From contig CAKUXP010000002.1 of assembly GCA_934700345.1 (NCBI GenBank), forward strand, positions 50,515-114,514: a stretch of 64,000 nucleotides of DNA, in the 5' to 3' direction. Made by a program: the position numbers and the translations under genes. Below are positions 11,055 through 50,031 of the stretch, one piece after another. Every line of letters begins with the position of its first letter. Position 1 is the first letter of the stretch. The notes beneath the pieces were generated by a model that saw only the letters and a list, made by a program, of their open reading frames with translations, was not told where the DNA came from and searched no databases. The stretch is from an uncultured Fibrobacter sp. (lineage in GTDB: Bacteria; Fibrobacterota; Fibrobacteria; Fibrobacterales; Fibrobacteraceae).

Positions 11055-12365
11055 TTCCCGGAGCGCTTCTGCCGGGGAGAAGCGCTTGACTTGCTTGCGC
11101 ATCGAGGAGTTCCAGTACGGCTGGACTTGCTGGCTGTATCCCGCGGTTCGCTTGGATGTCTTTCCGCTTGCCAGCTCGACCGCCTTTTGGAACGCGGAAT
11201 CCGCATCGGCGATATAGAAGTCCGGTTCAAACCCGTAGAGGTGATAGCTCTGGTAATTCTTGTCTAGGAAGAGGAACGAAGTGGCAACGCCGAAGGCGCT
11301 GTCGGGCGTTGTCACGTATGTCTGCCCGATACCCTTTCCGAAGGAGTTTGTTCCGACAACGGGAACTTTTAGGTTTGAAGTAAGTGCCGCAGCGAAGATT
11401 TCCGTGCAGCTCGCACTGCCGCTGTCGAGCATCATCACGTAATATCTGCCTGCTCCGATGCCGTCCTTTTCGACCGTAACGACCTGCTCGGACGAATCCC
11501 GCCCCTTTTTCCCGTAGCCCCATTTCCTCTCGACGATAACCGTGTCGCCGCGCTGGAGAACCGCCTTGGCCATGCGTACGCAAAGATCCACCGAACCGCC
11601 TCCGTTTCCGCGCAAGTCGAGAACCGTCGAAGCGGCTCCCTTGGTTCGGGAAAGCGCCTCTTCGAATTCAAGCGCAGTCCCGTCGGAATCGAATCCGTTC
11701 GTCTTTCCGACAAATTCCGTGATGCGGATAACCGGAATGTTTTCGGCGGAGTCGAGATATACCGTGGGGGAAATGACCGCCGTCCGGATCATTTCGATTG
11801 ACATCGTATCGTTTGAACGGGCAACGGAAAATGTAAACTCGTCCTTCTTCGCCGAAAGGATCGCTTTGTAGATAGAGTCGTTTCCGTTTAGCGGAACGTT
11901 GTCAACCGCAAGAAGAATGTCGCCTTTTAAAACTCCCGCCGAGGCTGCCGGTCCGACCCTGAAGACTGTCTTGACCCGGAGTTCGCCGTCGAGTTCCATG
12001 CCGAACGACTTGTCTTCCGTATCCGATTCCCGAATCGCCGAGGAGACCGCGGAATAGAAAGTGCGCGGGTAATAGGTCGTGAGCGGATCCGACATGGATT
12101 CATACATCACGATGACGTCCGCAACGTCTGCATATTTTTCGTTGATGATGGCTTTTAGCGGGCTTTCCAGATAGACTTCGGAATCTTCCAGTTCGTCCGC
12201 GGACTTGTAGTAATAGTAGTAGAGGAAGGAATAGTTAAACTGGAATTCCTTGCTCGCCTTGTCGGATACTTCGACCTGTGGCGAAACGGTATCGGTCGAG
12301 CATCCAAAAAAATATGCCGCGAGGGTGAGAGACGCCGCGGCGAGAAAAAGCTTGTTCTTTGGCAT
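11013..12365 (-). CDS. S41 family C-terminal processing peptidase (tail-specific protease) lipoprotein
   Basis: Lipobox FFGCST. PDZ-like segment, then LDLRGNGGG and a catalytic Ser/Lys region typical of Ctp/Prc. Its 3' end overlaps the convergent M23 gene by 42 nt. Confidence 0.8.
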   Translation of the reverse strand: MPKNKLFLAAASLTLAAYFFGCSTDTVSPQVEVSDKASKEFQFNYSFLYYYYYKSADELEDSEVYLESPLKAIINEKYADVADVIVMYESMSDPLTTYYPRTFYSAVSSAIRESDTEDKSFGMELDGELRVKTVFRVGPAASAGVLKGDILLAVDNVPLNGNDSIYKAILSAKKDEFTFSVARSNDTMSIEMIRTAVISPTVYLDSAENIPVIRITEFVGKTNGFDSDGTALEFEEALSRTKGAASTVLDLRGNGGGSVDLCVRMAKAVLQRGDTVIVERKWGYGKKGRDSSEQVVTVEKDGIGAGRYYVMMLDSGSASCTEIFAAALTSNLKVPVVGTNSFGKGIGQTYVTTPDSAFGVATSFLFLDKNYQSYHLYGFEPDFYIADADSAFQKAVELASGKTSKRTAGYSQQVQPYWNSSMRKQVKRFSPAEALRELKRGMAIREFPGL

Positions 12366-13122: not shown

Positions 13123-13364
13123 AGTATCGACTCCATTTTTTCAAATGATAGCATTTTTGTGCATTTTGCGGACTTTTTGCGGCAAAAGAGCGGATATGTG
13201 GCAAGTTTTTTTTGTTCCAAGCAGGAATATTCAAGAGGTTGCAGGGCTCAGTAATTCGTTGATAGTAGGGATAACTCAGAAGCCAGAAGTTGGGTGATGT
13301 GTGAGGAATTGGCTGCCGAGCGGACTTTCCATGTCCCGAGTCCCTCGTACCGCTTTTCGAAAAG

Positions 13365-13399
13365 CCTAGACGTCTGCGGACTAATCCCTAATTTCTCAT
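13365..13399 (-). repeat. Dispersed copy (reverse orientation) of the AGACGTCT-centred repeat family that is clustered at 20.7-21.6 kb
   Basis: cctagacgtctgcggactaatccctaatttctcat matches the reverse complement of atgagaaattagg...ttagtccgcggacgtctaag found at 20703-20752 and 21083-21132. Confidence 0.45.
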
Positions 13400-13606
13400 G
13401 TTCTCGACCGTCCGCTTCCTAATTTTAATTCTTCTCCGACAGGAAAATTCAAAAAGCGTGTTTTTGCATACAGAAATGCGTTTTAAATGGTTTGTAAAAA
13501 TTTTGAAACATCTTTTTTCGTGGAAAATCTCGAAAATAAGTGATATTTTAATTATCTATGTATAGTATAGTCAAAACTCCGGGTCCGGAGTTACTAGAGG
13601 ATTAAA

Positions 13607-15490
13607 ATGGAACTGACGAAAGCGCAAGAACGTAGACTTTCTTTTGTGGCCAGCTTGCTGAGCTTGAACCCGAACGATCCGACGGATCGCATCAAGGCTT
13701 TAAGGCATTTGAACCTGGATGAAGAGGGATGTTTTCACGGATTCCAGTATTCCCAGGGATTCCTTGAAATTTTCATTTTTATTGACGAGTCGACCCCGCT
13801 CGAAAAGGCCGTGCACAATCTGGCGCACGACCTGAAACAGCTCCAGATAGCCGTTTTCCGTACAAGTGATCCGGACAATCCGTTCTTTATGTCGCTCCGC
13901 GAAGAAGCCGATCCGTGGGATGTCATCAAGATGGACGCTTCGGACGCGGAGGAGGACGGCGACCAGCCGGCGAGTCGTCCTTACATGGAAACGCTTGAAA
14001 TCACGGTACTTAGGACGCTTTCTAGCCGTTACGTGACCGATGCGGAAATGGAACGCACGCTCAAGGATATGCGCCGCAAGTTGAACATCTGGAAGTCCGA
14101 TGTCCGGGCGAAGCTTGAAATCCGGGCGGAACATGACGATCTCGCAAAGGATTTTCGCAACAACGACGACAAGCTCGATATCGTAATGCAGGACGAACCT
14201 CTCCACATGACGAGCAAGAGTGGCGAGCTTTTTGTCGGGTTCTGCCCGATCCGCACCATCTTCGACTACCACCAGTCTTTGGGAAAGCGTCTCAAGACAA
14301 AGCATAATATGGCGATTGTTTCGAGCAACATCCGCACGTATCTCGGAAACCTGACCCATACGAACGCAGCCCTTATCGATGCGTTCCAGGAAATGGAAAA
14401 GGCGAATGACGCAAGCGATTTCCCGTTCCTCCACAACGGCATGACGCTCACGGGCGACGATCTGCGCCTGAAGGACCGCGACGGCAAGAAGGTCCTGCAA
14501 ATCGAACGTCCGAAGATTATCAACGGGGCGCAGTCGCTTTTCACCTACGAAAGCTATTTCAAGAAGAGCAAGAATCCGGTGAATCCGTTCGTGCTGATCA
14601 AGGTCGTGGTACCGTATCCCGAAGCGGACGCGTTTTTGCGACAGGTGACGATGGCAAACAACCGCCAGAACCCGGTGTTCAGTTACCATCTTCGCGCTGC
14701 GGACGATTTGCAGTTCTTCATCTGGCAGCGTTACCAGGAAGAAGGCTTTACCTACGTCTATAAGGACGGTGTCCGCCTGAAGGCTCGCACGCGCAAGCTC
14801 GAAGTCCGTATGCGGCCCGAACTCGCGAAGACTCTCTTCATGATGGACGGGAAAATTTCCGAAAGCCGTTCCTCGGACTGCATCTTTGACAAGGAAAGCC
14901 TTTACCAGCATTGCTTCGGCGCATTCCTGCGGGTCGCTCCGGACAAGGAACGCGACTTTGTACGTAAAACCATCGCCTATACGAAGGCGTGGCAGCTTCT
15001 CACCCGGCTTCCGATCAAGAACAGAAACGTCGTTCCGGGAAAAGGAGTTTCGATCGAAGCGAACGATGCAAACCCGCTCACGCGCATCACGTGGAACGGT
15101 CGCTTGGAGGACAAGTTCCTCTTCCGCAGCGCGGTCCGCGATGTCGTCGTAGCGATTGCGCTTCGCCATTGGCTCATCTACGGCAATCCGATCCAGGATT
15201 TTGAATATCTGGTCGTAAACGAGATTGATTTCAACAATTCGCTGCTCAAGTATGCGTCGCATATTTACGGCGACTACCTGAAATCGATTCTCGTAAACGA
15301 ATTCAAGGACAACAAGGATTACTACGACACGATTACCACAATCGACAAGGATTCCGGCGAAAATGTGGAACGTCGCCTGTGGAAAGGCTTCGGCACGACC
15401 GCTACCTATGACAAGATCATGCAGATGCTCGTGGCGAAGGACAAGTCCTGGGAAAAATGCCTAGGCGATATCGATGTCTTTTTGAAGTAA
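13607..15490 (+). CDS. Hypothetical 627-aa cytoplasmic protein with no confident family assignment
   Basis: Long ORF with GAGGAT 6 nt upstream of the ATG and natural amino-acid composition. The 520-aa antisense ORF at 13700..15262 is R/L/V-rich and looks like a shadow. Preceded by a ~480-bp AT-rich non-coding leader. Confidence 0.6.
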   Translation: MELTKAQERRLSFVASLLSLNPNDPTDRIKALRHLNLDEEGCFHGFQYSQGFLEIFIFIDESTPLEKAVHNLAHDLKQLQIAVFRTSDPDNPFFMSLREEADPWDVIKMDASDAEEDGDQPASRPYMETLEITVLRTLSSRYVTDAEMERTLKDMRRKLNIWKSDVRAKLEIRAEHDDLAKDFRNNDDKLDIVMQDEPLHMTSKSGELFVGFCPIRTIFDYHQSLGKRLKTKHNMAIVSSNIRTYLGNLTHTNAALIDAFQEMEKANDASDFPFLHNGMTLTGDDLRLKDRDGKKVLQIERPKIINGAQSLFTYESYFKKSKNPVNPFVLIKVVVPYPEADAFLRQVTMANNRQNPVFSYHLRAADDLQFFIWQRYQEEGFTYVYKDGVRLKARTRKLEVRMRPELAKTLFMMDGKISESRSSDCIFDKESLYQHCFGAFLRVAPDKERDFVRKTIAYTKAWQLLTRLPIKNRNVVPGKGVSIEANDANPLTRITWNGRLEDKFLFRSAVRDVVVAIALRHWLIYGNPIQDFEYLVVNEIDFNNSLLKYASHIYGDYLKSILVNEFKDNKDYYDTITTIDKDSGENVERRLWKGFGTTATYDKIMQMLVAKDKSWEKCLGDIDVFLK

Positions 15491-19291: not shown

Positions 19292-20596
19292 ATGAAAACA
19301 GATAAACTCTTTTTGTCCAGTCTTTTGGTTGCGGCTTTTTTCGTCGCCTGCGGTGACGATGTGACGCGGGTAGTCTCTCCGTCCGGGATGGAAACGGTTT
19401 CGCTCGGGGAATGTTCAAGCGAGACTCTCGGAAAAATGCTCTATGTCGCCGAAAGGAAAAGCGCCTATGTTTGTGGCGATACCGGCTGGTTTCCGCTTGC
19501 TTCCCGCAGGGAAAAGCTCGCCTGTGATTTCGAAATCTTGGAGGATTCTTCGGGCTACCGGATGGTTTGCGACGGCGATTCCGTCGGCGTCATCTATCAT
19601 GGAAAGGACGGTGCGGATGGGACGCTTGGGGCAAATGGCGAGAACGGCTCTTTGGCAAGTTGCTCGATAATCGAAAAGGAGAACTGGATTTTTCTCCAGG
19701 TTTGCGGTTTGGATACGACTTTCCTTTACCAGGCGATTTGCGGGGGCGAGCCTTTTGACCCGAAGGCAAATTTTTGCTTTGAAGGCAAAATTTTCGAAAA
19801 ACCTGTTTTCGGGACTGTTACCGATTTGCGGGATTCCGAAGTCTATCGGACTGTTCGGATAGGAAAGCAGACTTGGATGGCGGAAGATTTGCGAAGGGAT
19901 ATTCCGGGTAGCGTTACAAATGATCCCAAAGCCTGTCTTACAACGGATACGAGTGCTTTTTGCACATATTGGAGGGGTAGGAAAAATGGACCTAGTGGTG
20001 TGGGTATGTGGATGTTTGATCGCGCCTTTGCGGATTCTGCCGCTGAATTGATTCTTAGTGCGGGACGCCTGTATGAAGCCGAAAGCCTTTCTGTCTCGGA
20101 CAAGGCCGGGCTGTGCCCTGCCGGATTCCATCTTCCGGACAGCAGCGAATGGAATGAATTGCTTGCTTTTGTAACGGCTCATAGCCAAGGTGTCGAGCCG
20201 CTGCTTGCGCTTTGGGCTAATTATGGTTGGGCGGGTTGTACTGAAGGCGGTTGGGGGTTTTTGACGCCAACAGGATCTGGTACTACTTCTGATGGGCAAA
20301 ACCGAGGGGTCAACGGCGTGGATTTGTTTGGCTTTTCGACTTTGCCTGTATGGACGCAGACGATAGATATTACTAGACAAAATTTAGACGCAGATTTTTC
20401 GGATATGTACGGAAATCTTTCTGCCTATATAACGGATGAAGGGTTGTTTACGATGCTAGCTGCTGATGGAGGCTTTCATTATCGTAACATCTTGGCGGGT
20501 GGTACTCCTTGTTTGACATGTACAGCGACGCGTGAAATTTCAGACCATTATGGAGTAGAAGTTTATAGAGGCTTTGTCCGTTGTGTGGGGGACTGA
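19292..20596 (+). CDS. FISUMP-like paralogous lipoprotein (third copy)
   Basis: Lipobox FFVACGDDVTRVV. GKD-GAD-GTL-GAN-GEN-GSL (6 GXY). VRIGKQTWMAEDLRR and CPAGFHLPDSSEWNELLAFV. Confidence 0.6.
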   Translation: MKTDKLFLSSLLVAAFFVACGDDVTRVVSPSGMETVSLGECSSETLGKMLYVAERKSAYVCGDTGWFPLASRREKLACDFEILEDSSGYRMVCDGDSVGVIYHGKDGADGTLGANGENGSLASCSIIEKENWIFLQVCGLDTTFLYQAICGGEPFDPKANFCFEGKIFEKPVFGTVTDLRDSEVYRTVRIGKQTWMAEDLRRDIPGSVTNDPKACLTTDTSAFCTYWRGRKNGPSGVGMWMFDRAFADSAAELILSAGRLYEAESLSVSDKAGLCPAGFHLPDSSEWNELLAFVTAHSQGVEPLLALWANYGWAGCTEGGWGFLTPTGSGTTSDGQNRGVNGVDLFGFSTLPVWTQTIDITRQNLDADFSDMYGNLSAYITDEGLFTMLAADGGFHYRNILAGGTPCLTCTATREISDHYGVEVYRGFVRCVGD

Positions 20597-20624
20597 ATAA
20601 GTTGGCCTACCCGGCCTGGGGCAA

Positions 20625-20670
20625 GGTAGGGGGACCTTTCCAAGTTGCGAAGGCCAAGGTCCCCCTTCCT
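20625..20670 (+). terminator. Strong GC-rich hairpin downstream of the third FISUMP gene (terminator-like, no T-run)
   Basis: aggtagggggacc-N20-ggtcccccttcct pairs at 12 of 13 positions with a G5/C5 core. Confidence 0.3.
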
Positions 20671-20947
20671 TGCAACCACCCCCAGGACCACGCTTATCAT
20701 CGAATGAGAAATTAGGAGTGAGGAATGAGGAGTTAGTCCGCGGACGTCTAAGTTTAGGGACTAGGGAACAGGGATTAGGGAATAGTCCGCGGACGTCTAA
20801 GTTTAGTGGACAGTGATTAGTGGGCAGAGACGCAGACGTCTAGGTTTTTGGGATGAAGGAGTAGGGATTAGTTTGCGGACGTCTAAGCTTTTGGGAAGCG
20901 GTACGAGGAACACGGGATTCAGAGCTTAGTTGAGAGTGCTTAGAATT
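20670..20947 (+). repeat. Direct repeat copy 1 (~278 bp) containing three GCGGACGTCTAAG / GCAGACGTCTAGG palindromic-core sub-motifs and an internal 50-bp sub-duplication
   Basis: ttgcaaccacccccaggaccacgcttatcatcgaatgagaaattaggagtgaggaatgaggagttagtccgcggacgtctaag ... cagagcttagttgagagtgcttagaatt is repeated at 21050-21295. Confidence 0.85.
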
Positions 20948-21049
20948 GGCGGTTAGATTCGGAACGAGAAATTTGAAGCGAACAGACTGTTATTAACAAC
21001 GGTCGATGATTAGCTAAGTTCTCTATACGAAGCTCTATGTTCCGATAAC

Positions 21050-21295
21050 TTGCAACAACCCCCAAGGCCACGCTTATCATCGAATGAGAAATTAGGAGTG
21101 AGGAATGAGGAGTTAGTCCGCGGACGTCTAAGTTTAGTGGACAGTGATTAGTGGGCAGTGAGCAGAGACGCAGACGTCTAGGTTTTTGGGATGAAGGAGT
21201 AGGGATTAGTTTGCGGACGTCTAAGCTTTTGGGAAGCGGTACGAGGAACACGGGATTCAGAGCTTAGTTGAGAGTGCTTAGAATTTAGAACAGCG
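21050..21295 (+). repeat. Direct repeat copy 2 (~246 bp), >90% identical to copy 1 apart from a 50-bp deletion and a 7-bp insertion
   Basis: Read directly from the sequence; the two copies lie 380 bp apart. Confidence 0.85.
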
Positions 21296-21610
21296 GGATT
21301 TAAATTGCTGAAAAACAGAATCTAGTCGTCTGCAAATTTCAGCACTAAGCTCTCAGCTCTGACAACGGCTCGCTCGACAGTCTAATCCCTAATCCCTTCT
21401 CCCTGTTCCCTAGCTGCTCGCTAGTCACTGATCACTGATTTCTAACTTCTGTCAACTACCAACTAAGCTCTAACCACTGATTCCTGACAACTTACAGTTC
21501 GCTAGACTGTCAATTCCTCATTGCTCATTGCTCATTGCTAATTCCTCCCTAATCCCTATTCCCTTCCCCCTAATCCTTGATAGCGGTTCGCTGAACAGCC
21601 CGCATCCTAA
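21296..21610 (+). repeat. Degenerate, mostly inverted units of the same repeat family (TTCGCT-A/C-GAC-A/T-GTC-T/A-AAT-T/C-CC...), low-complexity
   Basis: ctcgctcgacagtctaatccctaatccc, ttcgctagactgtcaattcctcattgctcattgctcattgc and ttcgctgaacagc resemble reverse complements of ggattaggg, gaggaatgagg and ttagtccgcggac from the forward copies. Confidence 0.4.
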
Positions 21611-21730
21611 AACAAACAGAGCAAAAATTATTACTTTCTATCGGCTTTTGTGGGCGGAAAGGCGCTTTTTCTGTATTTTGGAAAACGTTTTTTGCCCTGC
21701 ATGTATGATGACGTCCGGATTGAAACGAAA

Positions 21731-24700
21731 ATGAAAAGGCTTTTAGCCGTTTTTGCCCTGTTGGTGTCGCTGTCTCCTGCCGAGCCGGCGGATTCCGCTG
21801 TGTCCGAAAATGCGGTGAGTTCGGGCAAAAGTTCCGTCCAGTATATTCCGCTCCCGCCGAGCGTGACTCCTCTCTCGGATTTGGTCCCGAAGAGCGGTAT
21901 TGGCCAGAGCGACCGGCTGATGAATCCCCCGAAGAGCGAACGGTTCGAGCACAACATCGACTTTGAAAACCGCGAAATGGAAGTCTCCAAAAAGTATGTG
22001 AACCCGATAAGCCGCGATACGGCGGAAATGTGGTCTGCGACTTACCCCGAGATTGCCTCTTACGTTTCGGACATGTACGACATCGGATTCAACCGCCTGT
22101 GGCTGAACTCCTTTGCCGGTCAAAAGGACGGTGGCTATGCCGCCCCGGAAGGCGCAACGCTCTACGACATTGACATTCCCATCAACATGCCCTCGTGGAT
22201 GAAGGACTTTGGATTAGACAAGCCGAAGCTCATGCTGCAAGGGACGATGGATATCCGGCTTTCGGGCCGTGGAGAAAAGGACGATGCTCCGGGCAGCACC
22301 AAGGACAACCTGTTCCCTAGCCCGACACTTTCCTATGACCCGAGCTTTATGGTCAAGGGAAAAATCGGTCCGTATATCACCGTGGAAGTGAACAACGTGG
22401 AAAGCGGTCTCGGTGCGAAAAACCAGATTCGGGTCGTGTACGAGGAATCCTACAAGGATGAATTCGAGGATTACATCTTGCAGCGCATCGAGGCCGGTAC
22501 GACGTCGCTTGCGCTTCCCGGAACGGAACTCACGGGATATTCCGAAAATCACAAGGGACTGTTCGGCATCAAGGCCGAATGGAAGCTCGGAGACTGGTGG
22601 CTTACGACTATCGCTTCGCAGGACGGAGGAAGCCAGGAAAAGTACACGATCAACGCGAGCACAAGCACGACGGAATTCCAGATCCAGGACAAGCAGTTCG
22701 TCGCTTACCGCTACTACTTTTTAAATCAGGAAGCGCGTAGCAATTATGTCAGCGCGGGACTTGCCGGACGCAGCACGTCTCCGTATGCGGCGACGAACCT
22801 GAAGCTTTACCGCCGTGCACCGACCAACACGACGACGAATGTCGTGGAAAATATCACGGCGGTCTATGTGACGCCTTCGGGCGCGCGCGTCGAAAAGAAA
22901 ATCGACCGCCTGGTCCCGATGTCGGCAAACGACTATTCCTATGACAGCAAAACGGGCATCGTGAAAGTTCTCGGGGCGAACAAGAATACGCTTATCGCGG
23001 CGAGCTTCTCGGACGATGGGACGGGACGCTCCGGGACTACCGTGAACAACAATTCGAGGGTAGTCCTTATCCAGTGGGACGCGACGCTTTCGGAACTCGA
23101 AGGCATCGACAAGCTGATGCTTCGGAACGTCTATTCGGTCGGAATTTCGGACGAGAGTGCTTCGAGCTTCGTGCTCCGCTTAAAGAACAAGTCGGGCGTT
23201 TCGAGTTCCTACCTGAAGACTCTCGGACTGGTCGATTCGACGACGGGAACCGTTCTGACCGGCGACGCGACGATTTTTAAAAAGGACGCTTCGGGAACTT
23301 ACACGGGCGAAATGTGGTTGCCCTGCCGCCCGCTTTCGTGGTATTCCGGTGCGAATTCTTCGGCTCGAGCGCGGGAAAACTGCCTGGAGCCTTTCCGCAA
23401 CGTGGACTCTTCCGCGGCGATGGCGAATCTTTACTCGCTTCCCGTTTCGAACATCGCGTCTAAGTACACGAGCCGCTTCTACTTTGAAAGTGTCGGCAAG
23501 AGGCGCAACTCGGTCATCAGCGTGCGCGATCCGAATTCGAGCTATTCCGTCAGCGCTGGCAGCTGCATGGATATTTCGGAAGGCTCGGAAAAGTTGAAGG
23601 CCGGCTCGACGGTTCTCACCCGCGGCGTGGATTACGATGTGAACTACGAACTCGGGCAAATCGAACTTTTGAGCGAGACCGCTCTCGATCCGAACAAGGA
23701 AATCTCGGTGGAATTCGAGTGCGAACCCCTGTTCGAAATCGACAACAAGGTGCTGCTCGGCGCTCGCGCGGAACTTCCCCTTTCGCGGTATGGATTTGGA
23801 AACGGGTCGCTCTTCGGCATTACGGCTCTCTACAAGAGCCAGAGCACGACCGCTTCGACGCCGACGCTCGGGAGCGAACCTTATTCGAGCTTTCTCTGGG
23901 GCATGAACCTGCGCCTGCAGGATACGACGAAGTGGATGACGGATGTGGTGAACTGGATTCCCGGAATCGAAACGAAGGCCGCTTCGAACTGGCGCTTCGA
24001 AACGGAATTTGCGAGCAGCTATCACGATGCGAATACGAGCAGCGGCAAGACTGCGCTTCTCGAAGATTTTGAAAGCAGCGAATCGGGGCTTGTCTATCCG
24101 CTGTCTAGACTTTCCTGGTACCAGGCCTCGCCTCCGGGGGGCGTCGATACGGATCCGAGCACCTACATCGAAAGCCAGGATTACAAGCACAAGGGCGAAT
24201 TCATCTGGCACAGCAACAACACGGTTCTCTACAAGCACATCTACCCGACTGTAGGAAACAGCGATGTCGATAACCAGCGTTTAACGGTCCTGAAGCTCAC
24301 GCTCCGCCCGAACGACAACCTGATGGGGAACAGCTGGGGCGGTATCATGCGCCCGAATTCAAGTTATTACCAGGACCTGAGTGACATGAAGTATATCGAA
24401 GTCGTCGCGCGGGGAAATGTCGGAAGCATCTATTTGGATTTGGGGCTTGTGAGCGAAGACCTTTCCATCAACGGCGATGCGCCGAACGGGCAATATGACG
24501 GCGAAAACGATCTGGGAACGACGACGGCTTTGCACGATAAGGGTCTCGACGGACTTTCCGGGTCGGAAGAACATCTGACCGTCTGGGACTGCCGCATGAA
24601 CGGCTGCGTGAGCACCATCAAGACGAGTGCGAATTCCGATGCGACGAATACGGACATTGCGCGTGACAACTTCGACGACAGCCTCGACGATGCCAGCGAT

Positions 24701-47899: not shown

Positions 47900-48333
47900 T
47901 TTATGCAGACGGAAGAAATCCTGACACGGTTTGACGACATCGCGCTTTCTTTCGTCTTCGATTCCTTCTCCCAAAACGATTTTGAATTTTGGGGCGGGAA
48001 CAGGGTTGCGTTCAAACTTTGAATTTTCCGTCTTGGACTATACCGAAATCTGCCCACTTGAAAGTTTGACCCGATAGCTTCCGCCCTTTCGATACACCAT
48101 TTAGAAGAATGCGCAGGAAAATGCTCTAACGGAATATCTTTGAACGTCTCGAGCATGGCTATTGGTGAACCTCGACCGGTTCGATGCGGAATTTTCCGAA
48201 GTGCTATCCGGGAAAGCGGCCTTTCGAAATTGGAATTTGAACGCTAGATAGCGCGGAAAGCCTTGGAGCGCGCGAATCGGTAAGACGAAACTCGTCGAAA
48301 AAAATCCACTGCTAGGATTAGTCGCTAGAGTCG

Positions 48334-49957: not shown

Positions 49958-50031
49958 CTTTAACCTGGTTTTTTTTACTTTTTTCTCCGTAATTCGCAAT
50001 TTTTGGCAAGGATTGAATATATCTTTGTGGT

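Follow-up and report, generated by a model that had tools for sequence, protein, structure and literature searches.

A probable mosaic nest of small intergenic repeats, built on a seven-nucleotide lattice, upstream of a sprA-like gene in gut Fibrobacteraceae

In an uncultured Fibrobacter sp., the last of several FISUMP genes is separated from a giant sprA-like gene by a spacer of about 1.1 kb (positions 20597-21730 of the 64,000-nt stretch of contig CAKUXP010000002.1 that was analysed here, hereafter the window). We consider it probable (roughly 70%) that this spacer is a mosaic nest of small, dispersed, non-coding intergenic repeats, similar in kind to bacterial interspersed mosaic elements (BIMEs) and neisserial intergenic mosaic elements (NIMEs), and that it belongs to a family common to gut Fibrobacteraceae. 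Its building blocks are tandem tracts of heptamers of the form NAGNNNN, a 13-nt core (GCRGACGTCTARG) in 7-nt register, a tail, an AGCGAAC-type end and a 91-nt hairpin. These blocks are dispersed and mosaic, they gain and lose whole heptamers and whole modules, and their cores grade from perfect to decayed; the array as such has no specific link to sprA. Full-text literature searches found no paper on Fibrobacter repeats, and the family, set apart by its heptamer lattice, is apparently new and undescribed, and of a known mosaic-repeat kind.

Nearly the whole spacer follows a 7-nt lattice, which was overlooked in a preliminary description of this DNA. Identity at a lag of seven nucleotides is 0.42 in the spacer versus 0.25 in the flanking coding sequences (CDS; z about 14), with ranges of 0.40-0.53 and 0.25-0.26, respectively. 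The stretch 20696-21606 gives a value of 0.44 (z = 13.9 when set against shuffles), with thirteen tracts of period 7 or 14 detected in the spacer by Tandem Repeats Finder (TRF). Most heptamers read NAGNNNN, which sets TAG, CAG or GAG, mostly TAG, at 7-nt intervals along the forward strand. The core shares this register, being part of a block of three heptamers (TAGTCCG CGGACGT CTAAGTT) in phase with its neighbors. When the first 98 nt are written in rows of seven heptamers, two 49-nt rows result, both ending in TAGTCCG CGGACGT, and the next row starts with CTAAGTT. The same lag-7/14 excess was found in the intergenic DNA of all five family genomes examined (see below), while their CDS had no such excess.

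The core occurs eight times in the window, versus 0.28 copies expected by chance, and none of 100 shuffles reached eight. Seven exact copies are on the + strand of the spacer (starting at 20740, 20789, 20832, 20875, 21120, 21170 and 21213), spaced by 49, 43 and 43 nt in one group and by 50 and 43 nt in the other, and the eighth is on the - strand at 13365-13377. The preliminary description had stressed perfect 8-bp palindromic cores. Overlapping palindromes are indeed present, but the perfect 8-bp palindrome AGACGTCT is found in just two of the seven spacer cores. The remaining five read GGACGTCT and contain the 6-bp palindrome GACGTC, which in three of these five, as read from the sequence, overlaps a 10-bp palindrome (GTCCGCGGAC).

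A search of genomes, proposed as a check in the preliminary description, placed the core and its accompanying modules at many unlinked intergenic sites, and each module of the spacer has copies elsewhere. In a scan of one genome per species, the extended core was found at at least 108 loci, and among the matches listed about two thirds came from five genomes, namely an uncultured Fibrobacter metagenome-assembled genome (MAG), a Hallerella MAG, and three bins bearing the names Senegalimassilia, Oscillospiraceae and Alistipes in their titles. Core flanks in these five genomes share the modules of the window, with heptamers upstream, the tail CTTTTGGGAAGCGGTACGAGGGACACGGGAT downstream, and then an AGCGAAC-type motif. 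Among the matches listed, 114 of 116 cores in the five Fibrobacteraceae genomes lay outside CDS predicted with a codon-usage gene caller trained on family sequences, and the density of cores with one mismatch was ~90-fold higher between genes than within CDS. Genes beside the cores are ordinary and varied (e.g., ABC transporters, triosephosphate isomerase, serine hydroxymethyltransferase and EF-Tu), and modules are combined in differing orders across loci and strains. One 85-nt segment of the spacer (21462-21546) has a copy with 97.6% identity at L056, which is unlinked and belongs to the same species, and is ~83% identical to four further loci (L007, L065, L034 and L013). This dispersed, intergenic and mosaic pattern, together with the polymorphism between strains reported below, supports the cluster of repetitive extragenic palindrome (REP)- or BIME-like elements that the preliminary description had listed among its possibilities.

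Core matches in other phyla were at chance level and mostly within open reading frames (ORFs). A scan of viral contigs returned two core matches, both without family features and judged to be chance, and a phage link was rejected. Of 65 intergenic regions, 27 had the core on the strand richer in G, indicating no replication-strand bias, and core orientation relative to co-directional neighbors was weakly skewed toward sense (16 vs 7 intergenic regions, p = 0.09). An apparent 'nearest gene' pattern, seen where the neighbors are convergent or divergent, is accounted for by the position of the core within the composite element, close to its 5' end.

Read from the FISUMP side, the forward (+ strand) part of the spacer begins 9 nt past the stop codon with the H2 module, a dispersed long hairpin of 91 nt (20605-20695). 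A heptamer tract of GAGNAAT/TAGGAGT type (20699-20739; identified by TRF period 7/14 and by heptamer stacking) runs up to core 1 (GCGGACGTCTAAG, 20740-20752), which is embedded in the three-heptamer block given above. This is followed by a 49-nt (7 x 7) module (20748-20796), made up of a TAGGGAA-type tract and core 2 (20789-20801) and variable in presence among strains, and by a TAGTGGA/CAGTGAT-type tract (20802-20831) that is one heptamer shorter than its equivalent in the second repeat copy. Core 3 (20832-20844) is the variant GCAGACGTCTAGG, which contains the 8-bp palindrome, and core 4 (20875-20887) again reads GCGGACGTCTAAG. 'Tail A' (CTTTTGGGAAGCGGTACGAGGAACACGGGAT), which also follows the core at many other loci, and an AGAGCTT/TAGTTGA heptamer tract complete this copy (20888-20947). 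A 102-nt segment with an AGCGAAC-type end module (20948-21049) then leads to the second copy (21050-21295), with cores at 21120-21132, 21170-21182 and 21213-21225.

The two long direct repeats, one with an internal duplication of about 50 bp, had been recognized in the preliminary description, and they are confirmed here as segments of 89% identity (20648-20757 vs 21028-21137) and 95% identity (20805-20947 vs 21143-21285). The extra module of copy 1 is the 49-nt unit at 20748-20796, and copy 2 in turn carries one additional heptamer. The earlier count of three cores per repeat needs correction, since copy 1 holds four and copy 2 holds three. Beyond copy 2 lies an older block in inverse orientation (21296-21577, - strand) with decayed cores, one of which (21321-21333) is the reverse complement of GCAGACGACTAGA. 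This block holds AGCGAAC-type modules at 21361-21382 and 21486-21511, and heptamer tracts (CTAATCC, TCACTGA, ATTGCTC and TCCCTAA) whose copy number varies among strains. Fourteen inverted-repeat pairs with 76-88% complementarity join 20747-21290 to 21382-21580, in agreement with the degenerate, inverted block of ~300 bp described before.

Conspecific alleles of the locus were called as contigs encoding an identical 434-aa FISUMP protein, and five of them span the whole spacer, which measures 1135 nt in the window, 796 nt in L111, 784 nt in L110, 747 nt in L109 and 501 nt in L112. Alignment of these five alleles revealed one-heptamer (7-nt) differences in three tracts and a three-heptamer (21-nt) difference in a fourth. 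The 49-nt tract-plus-core module is present in the window, L111, L113 and L115, and missing from L109, L110, L114 and L118. A 387-nt block with identical core-containing repeats at both bounds was found only in the window among the five aligned alleles, and copy 2 of the long repeat is the counterpart of the single copy in L109, L110 and L111. The block includes the 102 nt at 20948-21049, otherwise seen in L113 only among the compared strains. Variants peculiar to copy 1 of the window were found independently in L113 and in L115, which argues for a real duplication rather than a misassembly. In L112, the forward block is replaced by other modules and none of the seven forward cores is present, with the 154 nt nearest to sprA kept. 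Every strain retains the inverse block, or at least some of it, with its decayed cores; perfect cores in the polymorphic forward block and decayed cores in the inverse block suggest two insertion ages. Because the array differs between near-identical strains, we regard it as fast-changing repeat DNA and not as a dedicated sprA switch. Six of ten contigs end inside the array. In the Hadza-derived strain L113, positions 11615-11823 hold a segment matching window 20940-21018, followed at the contig end by the start of a transposase-like ORF (MAKKHPWELSDEFWNLVEP), which would fit an insertion sequence (IS)-like insertion within the repeat array.

Only the H2 module has a convincing, conserved fold. 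The strong G5/C5 hairpin noted earlier at the start of the region is borne out, with 20613-20688 folding at -46 kcal/mol (z = -2.8) through an inner 18-bp G5/C5 stem and an outer CCTGGGG/CCCCAGG stem. Copies 90-96% identical to it occur at six other loci (L100, L052, L007, L073, L055 and L093), and the consensus fold of -40.9 kcal/mol has 27 pairs, two of them with compensatory double changes. Positioned just past the FISUMP stop, this hairpin may terminate or stabilize the upstream transcript. For the forward and inverse arrays, predicted folding did not exceed that of shuffled sequence (z = -0.5 and -1.5, respectively), and the RNAalifold consensus of 13 'core to AGCGAAC' units was -0.9 kcal/mol with no compensatory pairs. 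A covariation and structure search across copies of the core/heptamer units found no conserved covarying structure. A proposed stem (GAARCGGT/ACYGTTTC) was 73.6% paired, yet was rejected as 483 of 500 shuffles equalled it.

A comparison with a related species illustrates how a single composite element may come and go. At L060, a locus of this species (88% nucleotide identity), a ~240-bp composite lies ~15 nt past a stop codon, antisense to both neighboring genes, and the orthologous site of the window (49958-50031) is empty of it. We picture three processes acting on such elements. Replication slippage within heptamer tracts would give whole-heptamer changes, unequal recombination between cores would give whole-module changes, and a putative trans-acting mobilization or recombination activity, recognizing the core at the DNA level, would seed new loci. 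The forward block with its perfect cores would then be younger and still segregating in the population, the inverse block with its decayed cores would be older, and the array as a whole would fill the space from the end of the last FISUMP gene to the conserved 154 nt next to sprA.

Several observations weigh against this reading of the spacer as a nest of mobile repeats. No terminal inverted repeats were found at the ends of the ~240-bp composite in the comparison of L060 with the window, and the insertion in this single comparison lies in a T-run, where 3-4 T are possibly duplicated, an ambiguous target-site duplication. No transposase or recombinase recurred next to the repeats among 437 predicted neighbors (~0.5 Mb sampled), and the 25 most frequent of 111 Pfam families matched by 145 neighbors of 100-260 aa included no transposase; clustering of the 437 proteins and Pfam matches of the 145 gave only housekeeping families and FISUMP paralogues. 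Mobility is therefore something that we infer. In addition, a host protein that binds the 13-mer could equally well account for its being exactly conserved between species, the weak sense-orientation tendency leaves room for a role at the transcript level, and the comparison sequences are all metagenome assemblies, in which repeats can be chimeric. The preliminary description had favored protein binding sites or mobile miniature elements; the part that stands is a REP/BIME-like cluster, and operators of sprA and MITEs (miniature transposable elements with inverted-repeat ends) in the strict sense find no support, the latter for want of terminal inverted repeats, a convincing target-site duplication and any parent IS that could be found.

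The failure to find a transposase among the neighbors sampled, terminal inverted repeats or a clear target duplication, and an orientation that does not follow GC skew and follows gene direction only weakly, make roles for a host protein or for the hairpin as a 3' untranslated region (UTR) the alternatives to be weighed. The cores could be genome-wide sites of binding or action of a host DNA protein (a nucleoid-associated protein, topoisomerase, recombinase or methyltransferase-linked factor), with TAGTCCGCGGACGTCTAAGTT as a candidate 21-bp binding sequence and with arrays persisting because they organize or insulate chromosomal domains, as proposed for Escherichia coli BIMEs, which bind integration host factor, Pol I and gyrase (PMC3184786). 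Such a role would explain why the 13-mer is exact in all seven local copies and across the five genomes while the flanking heptamers vary, and it fits both the overlapping palindromes, typical of dimer binding sites, and the absence of an RNA fold in the core array. Nevertheless, we consider it unlikely given that a strain of the same species dispenses with all seven forward cores at the locus, that decayed cores are common, and that the frequencies of GACGTC and CCGCGG are otherwise unremarkable. Less likely still is a function in RNA, where the elements would serve as intercistronic or 3'-UTR modules, the hairpin terminating or stabilizing the FISUMP transcript and the purine-rich GGA/GGG heptamers binding an RNA-binding protein or forming G-quadruplexes. 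The hairpin does open the array 9 nt past a stop codon, a T-run follows H2-type hairpins at three other loci, the filled site at L060 is likewise just past a stop codon, fourfold TAGGGAN tracts match the G3N4 quadruplex pattern when read from the sequence, and the sense bias of 16:7 points the same way. However, this bias is not significant, the hairpin of the window has no T-run, and there is no excess folding or covariation beyond the hairpin. Moreover, the L060 element is antisense to both neighbors, the inverse block is antisense and upstream of sprA, and many tract types (CAGTGAT, GAGCTTA and AATGAGC) contain neither GGA nor GGG.

The remaining alternatives fare considerably worse. Regularly spaced palindromic cores upstream of sprA had invited the earlier suggestion of an operator array for a dimeric regulator controlling this gene, which we now judge highly improbable: the same cores occur beside many unrelated genes, the nearest exact core is ~480 nt from the first candidate ATG start of sprA at 21701, core number varies among strains with an identical neighboring protein, and L112 does without all seven forward cores, although its 154 nt next to sprA are retained. 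The scarcely credible readings are those of a CRISPR-like array, a structured non-coding RNA gene or a remnant of a coding gene. The array has a repeat-spacer look (a 23-nt repeat with 26-nt 'spacers'), and a survey lists 29 annotated 'CRISPRs' in Fibrobacter succinogenes S85 (PMC4852346), but its 'spacers' consist of heptamer tracts of low complexity, found again at other loci, and no Cas-type Pfam domains were found within +/-10 kb. A structured RNA, also suggested before, receives no support for the core/heptamer arrays from Rfam, from folding or from covariation, the H2 module excepted. Rfam gave no match at gathering scores across the whole window, and for the region at E <= 1 only chance-level matches, to Dictyostelium class I RNA at E = 0.19 (the best) and to mir-423 at E = 0.79. 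As for coding capacity, a 103-aa ORF exists on the - strand, but the ORFs in 20597-21649 are only 44-103 aa long, four small ones had no Pfam match at E <= 1, and the indels between strains (7, 7, 7, 21 and 49 nt) break the frame in 7-nt steps and are incompatible with a coding region. The earlier statement that the spacer contains no plausible ORF thus holds, and a degraded gene remnant finds no support on the same grounds.

The genes on either side place the spacer in a gut lineage. The 434-aa protein encoded immediately upstream (19292-20596) has an identical sequence on 22 public contigs, including the MAG GCA_050872465.1 'Hallerella sp.', and human-gut metagenome contigs among these have the gene order of the window. 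Precomputed Pfam annotation of these contigs assigns the three genes upstream of the spacer to Fib_succ_major (FISUMP) and the 2268-aa gene downstream to SprA_N, confirming the gene labels first given. The host of the window is a gut member of the Fibrobacteraceae, in the Hallerella/Fibrobacter lineage of the phylum Fibrobacterota. Three candidate starts are available for the sprA-like gene, namely GTG 21650 (longest ORF), ATG 21701 (used in public gene calls, 2268 aa) and ATG 21732, the last giving a protein that begins MKRLLAVFALLVS and has a signal-peptide-like look. The 154 nt before ATG 21732 (21578-21731, + strand) align in all five strains compared, contain the last AGCGAAC-type module (21579-21601), and presumably comprise the sprA promoter and 5' leader. 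A sigma-70 scan found nothing convincing in 21578-21731. Its count of promoter-like sites (3 vs 1.4 +/- 1.1 in shuffles) and that of terminator-like sites in a terminator scan (3 vs 2.1 +/- 1.7 in shuffles) are near chance and uninformative.

Elsewhere in the window, the eighth core belongs to a solitary element (13334-13399, - strand) consisting of heptamers, a core of the GCAGACGTCTAGG type and tail A. It lies in a divergent intergenic region (13123-13606) adjoining an AIPR (abortive-infection) gene (13607-15490), and in L112 and L117 it is swapped for a diverged variant, the rest of that spacer being conserved. A gap at 47900-48333 shows fragmentary similarity to two intact genes of L060 (1066-2425), the locus from the related species, and looks like a decayed gene remnant. 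A restriction-modification role of the core palindromes was considered and rejected, with GACGTC and CCGCGG at ordinary frequency (GACGTC observed/expected 1.14) in 565 kb pooled from the window and family loci. Four other sites (GTCGAC, GTATAC, CTCGAG and GAGCTC) were strongly under-represented in the same pool (observed/expected 0.08-0.31), a depletion that suggests restriction-modification pressure.

A second repeat family was encountered in the related genomes, with the form TGTCATT, stem, CTTGAC-like loop and returning stem (e.g., L002 1086-1143, L007 6492-6576 and L103 3916-4055). Its stems covary (CCCCGG, CCCGTG, ATCGGG and GCCGGG), and frequent head-to-head doublets resemble REPINs, discussed below; the family is abundant in these genomes and absent from the 64-kb window. 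Fibrobacteraceae repeat modules were also present in 'cleanbin' H07xxx bins titled Senegalimassilia sp., Oscillospiraceae bacterium and Alistipes onderdonkii (contigs CAVJTH01, CAVKXR01 and CAVKGV01), some of whose hairpin copies are 90-96% identical to that of the window. As these bins carry FISUMP paralogues as well as the repeat modules, they are probably mislabelled.

The family adds to the catalogue of bacterial interspersed repeats from a phylum for which our literature search returned no characterized examples. It has practical consequences, in that it breaks short-read assemblies, its arrays could mimic CRISPR through their repeat-spacer appearance, and the same arrays are fast-evolving strain markers for gut Hallerella and Fibrobacter. 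It also removes a tempting idea, as a function of the array as regulator of sprA, a gene of the type IX secretion translocon, is unsupported.

No homologue of the Fibrobacteraceae array was found among the systems compared, namely BIMEs, NIMEs, REPINs and the small dispersed repeats of Nostoc, and the similarities are of build. The BIMEs of enterobacteria are mosaics of REP sequences (PMC3184786), and like them the arrays described here are extragenic, multi-copy and variable, with conserved linker motifs and a frequent position just past genes; hairpin modules also occur in the family (H2 in the window, TGTCATT doublets at related loci). In contrast to REP sequences, the core is not a stem-loop (z = -0.5, no consensus structure), and the heptamer lattice has no counterpart in BIMEs. 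REPINs are mobilized by RAYT transposases (PMC3116915), and the TGTCATT hairpin doublets at related loci are reminiscent of them, although no RAYT gene was seen among the neighbors sampled (~0.5 Mb). In NIMEs, 20-bp dRS3 repeats flank the RS units (Parkhill et al. 2000, summarized in PMC3184786), and there too short conserved repeats bound variable units in long, recombination-prone intergenic arrays. NIME units, however, are 50-150 bp of complex sequence as opposed to ~30 nt of tandem heptamers, and dRS3 is a target of phage or IS110-type integration, whereas the viral-contig matches of the Fibrobacteraceae core were chance only. MITEs differ in having inverted-repeat ends, which the ~240-bp composite lacks, and CRISPR arrays differ in having unique spacers and associated Cas domains. 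In the CRISPR survey, the 29 annotations in F. succinogenes S85 exceed the per-genome count of every other phylum, and cyanobacteria rank second (PMC4852346). Both sets may include, or consist of, mis-called core-plus-heptamer arrays.

Modular small repeats are also known from pneumococci, where BOX elements have the structure boxA-boxB(n)-boxC. The modular build and the variation of internal unit number between strains are shared with the Fibrobacteraceae array, which has no sequence relation to BOX, no pairing terminal modules and, unlike BOX, a 7-nt lattice. The closest architectural parallel is in the Nostocaceae, where small dispersed repeats (SDR) of 21-27 nt were reportedly found by Elhai and colleagues (2008, Genome Res 18:1484) within tandem heptamer (STRR) repeats, SDR4-6 reportedly sharing a hairpin with compensatory changes. 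Their study is referenced in PMC5861425 and PMC3116915. As in Nostoc, a very short conserved element (13-21 nt here) sits inside tandem heptamer tracts, is dispersed between genes, forms mosaics and nests, and is restricted to a single coherent lineage. What the two share is architecture alone, between different phyla and with no sequence similarity; the Fibrobacteraceae core has no supported fold of the SDR4-6 kind, and it separates heptamer tracts of different types instead of interrupting one homogeneous tract. A lattice of 7 nt with an embedded core would be a second, phylogenetically remote case of the Nostoc architecture, allowing the origin and movement of tiny elements to be compared across phyla. 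It is conceivable, if doubtful, that Fibrobacteraceae and heterocystous cyanobacteria independently acquired 7-nt-lattice intergenic DNA that propagates a short, exactly conserved element. If so, a general process would both write heptamer tracts and disperse an element of 13-27 nt, by neither ordinary transposition nor passive slippage. Candidates would be a polymerase or reverse-transcriptase activity of a templated or reiterative type, or a recombinase whose substrate is the palindromic core.

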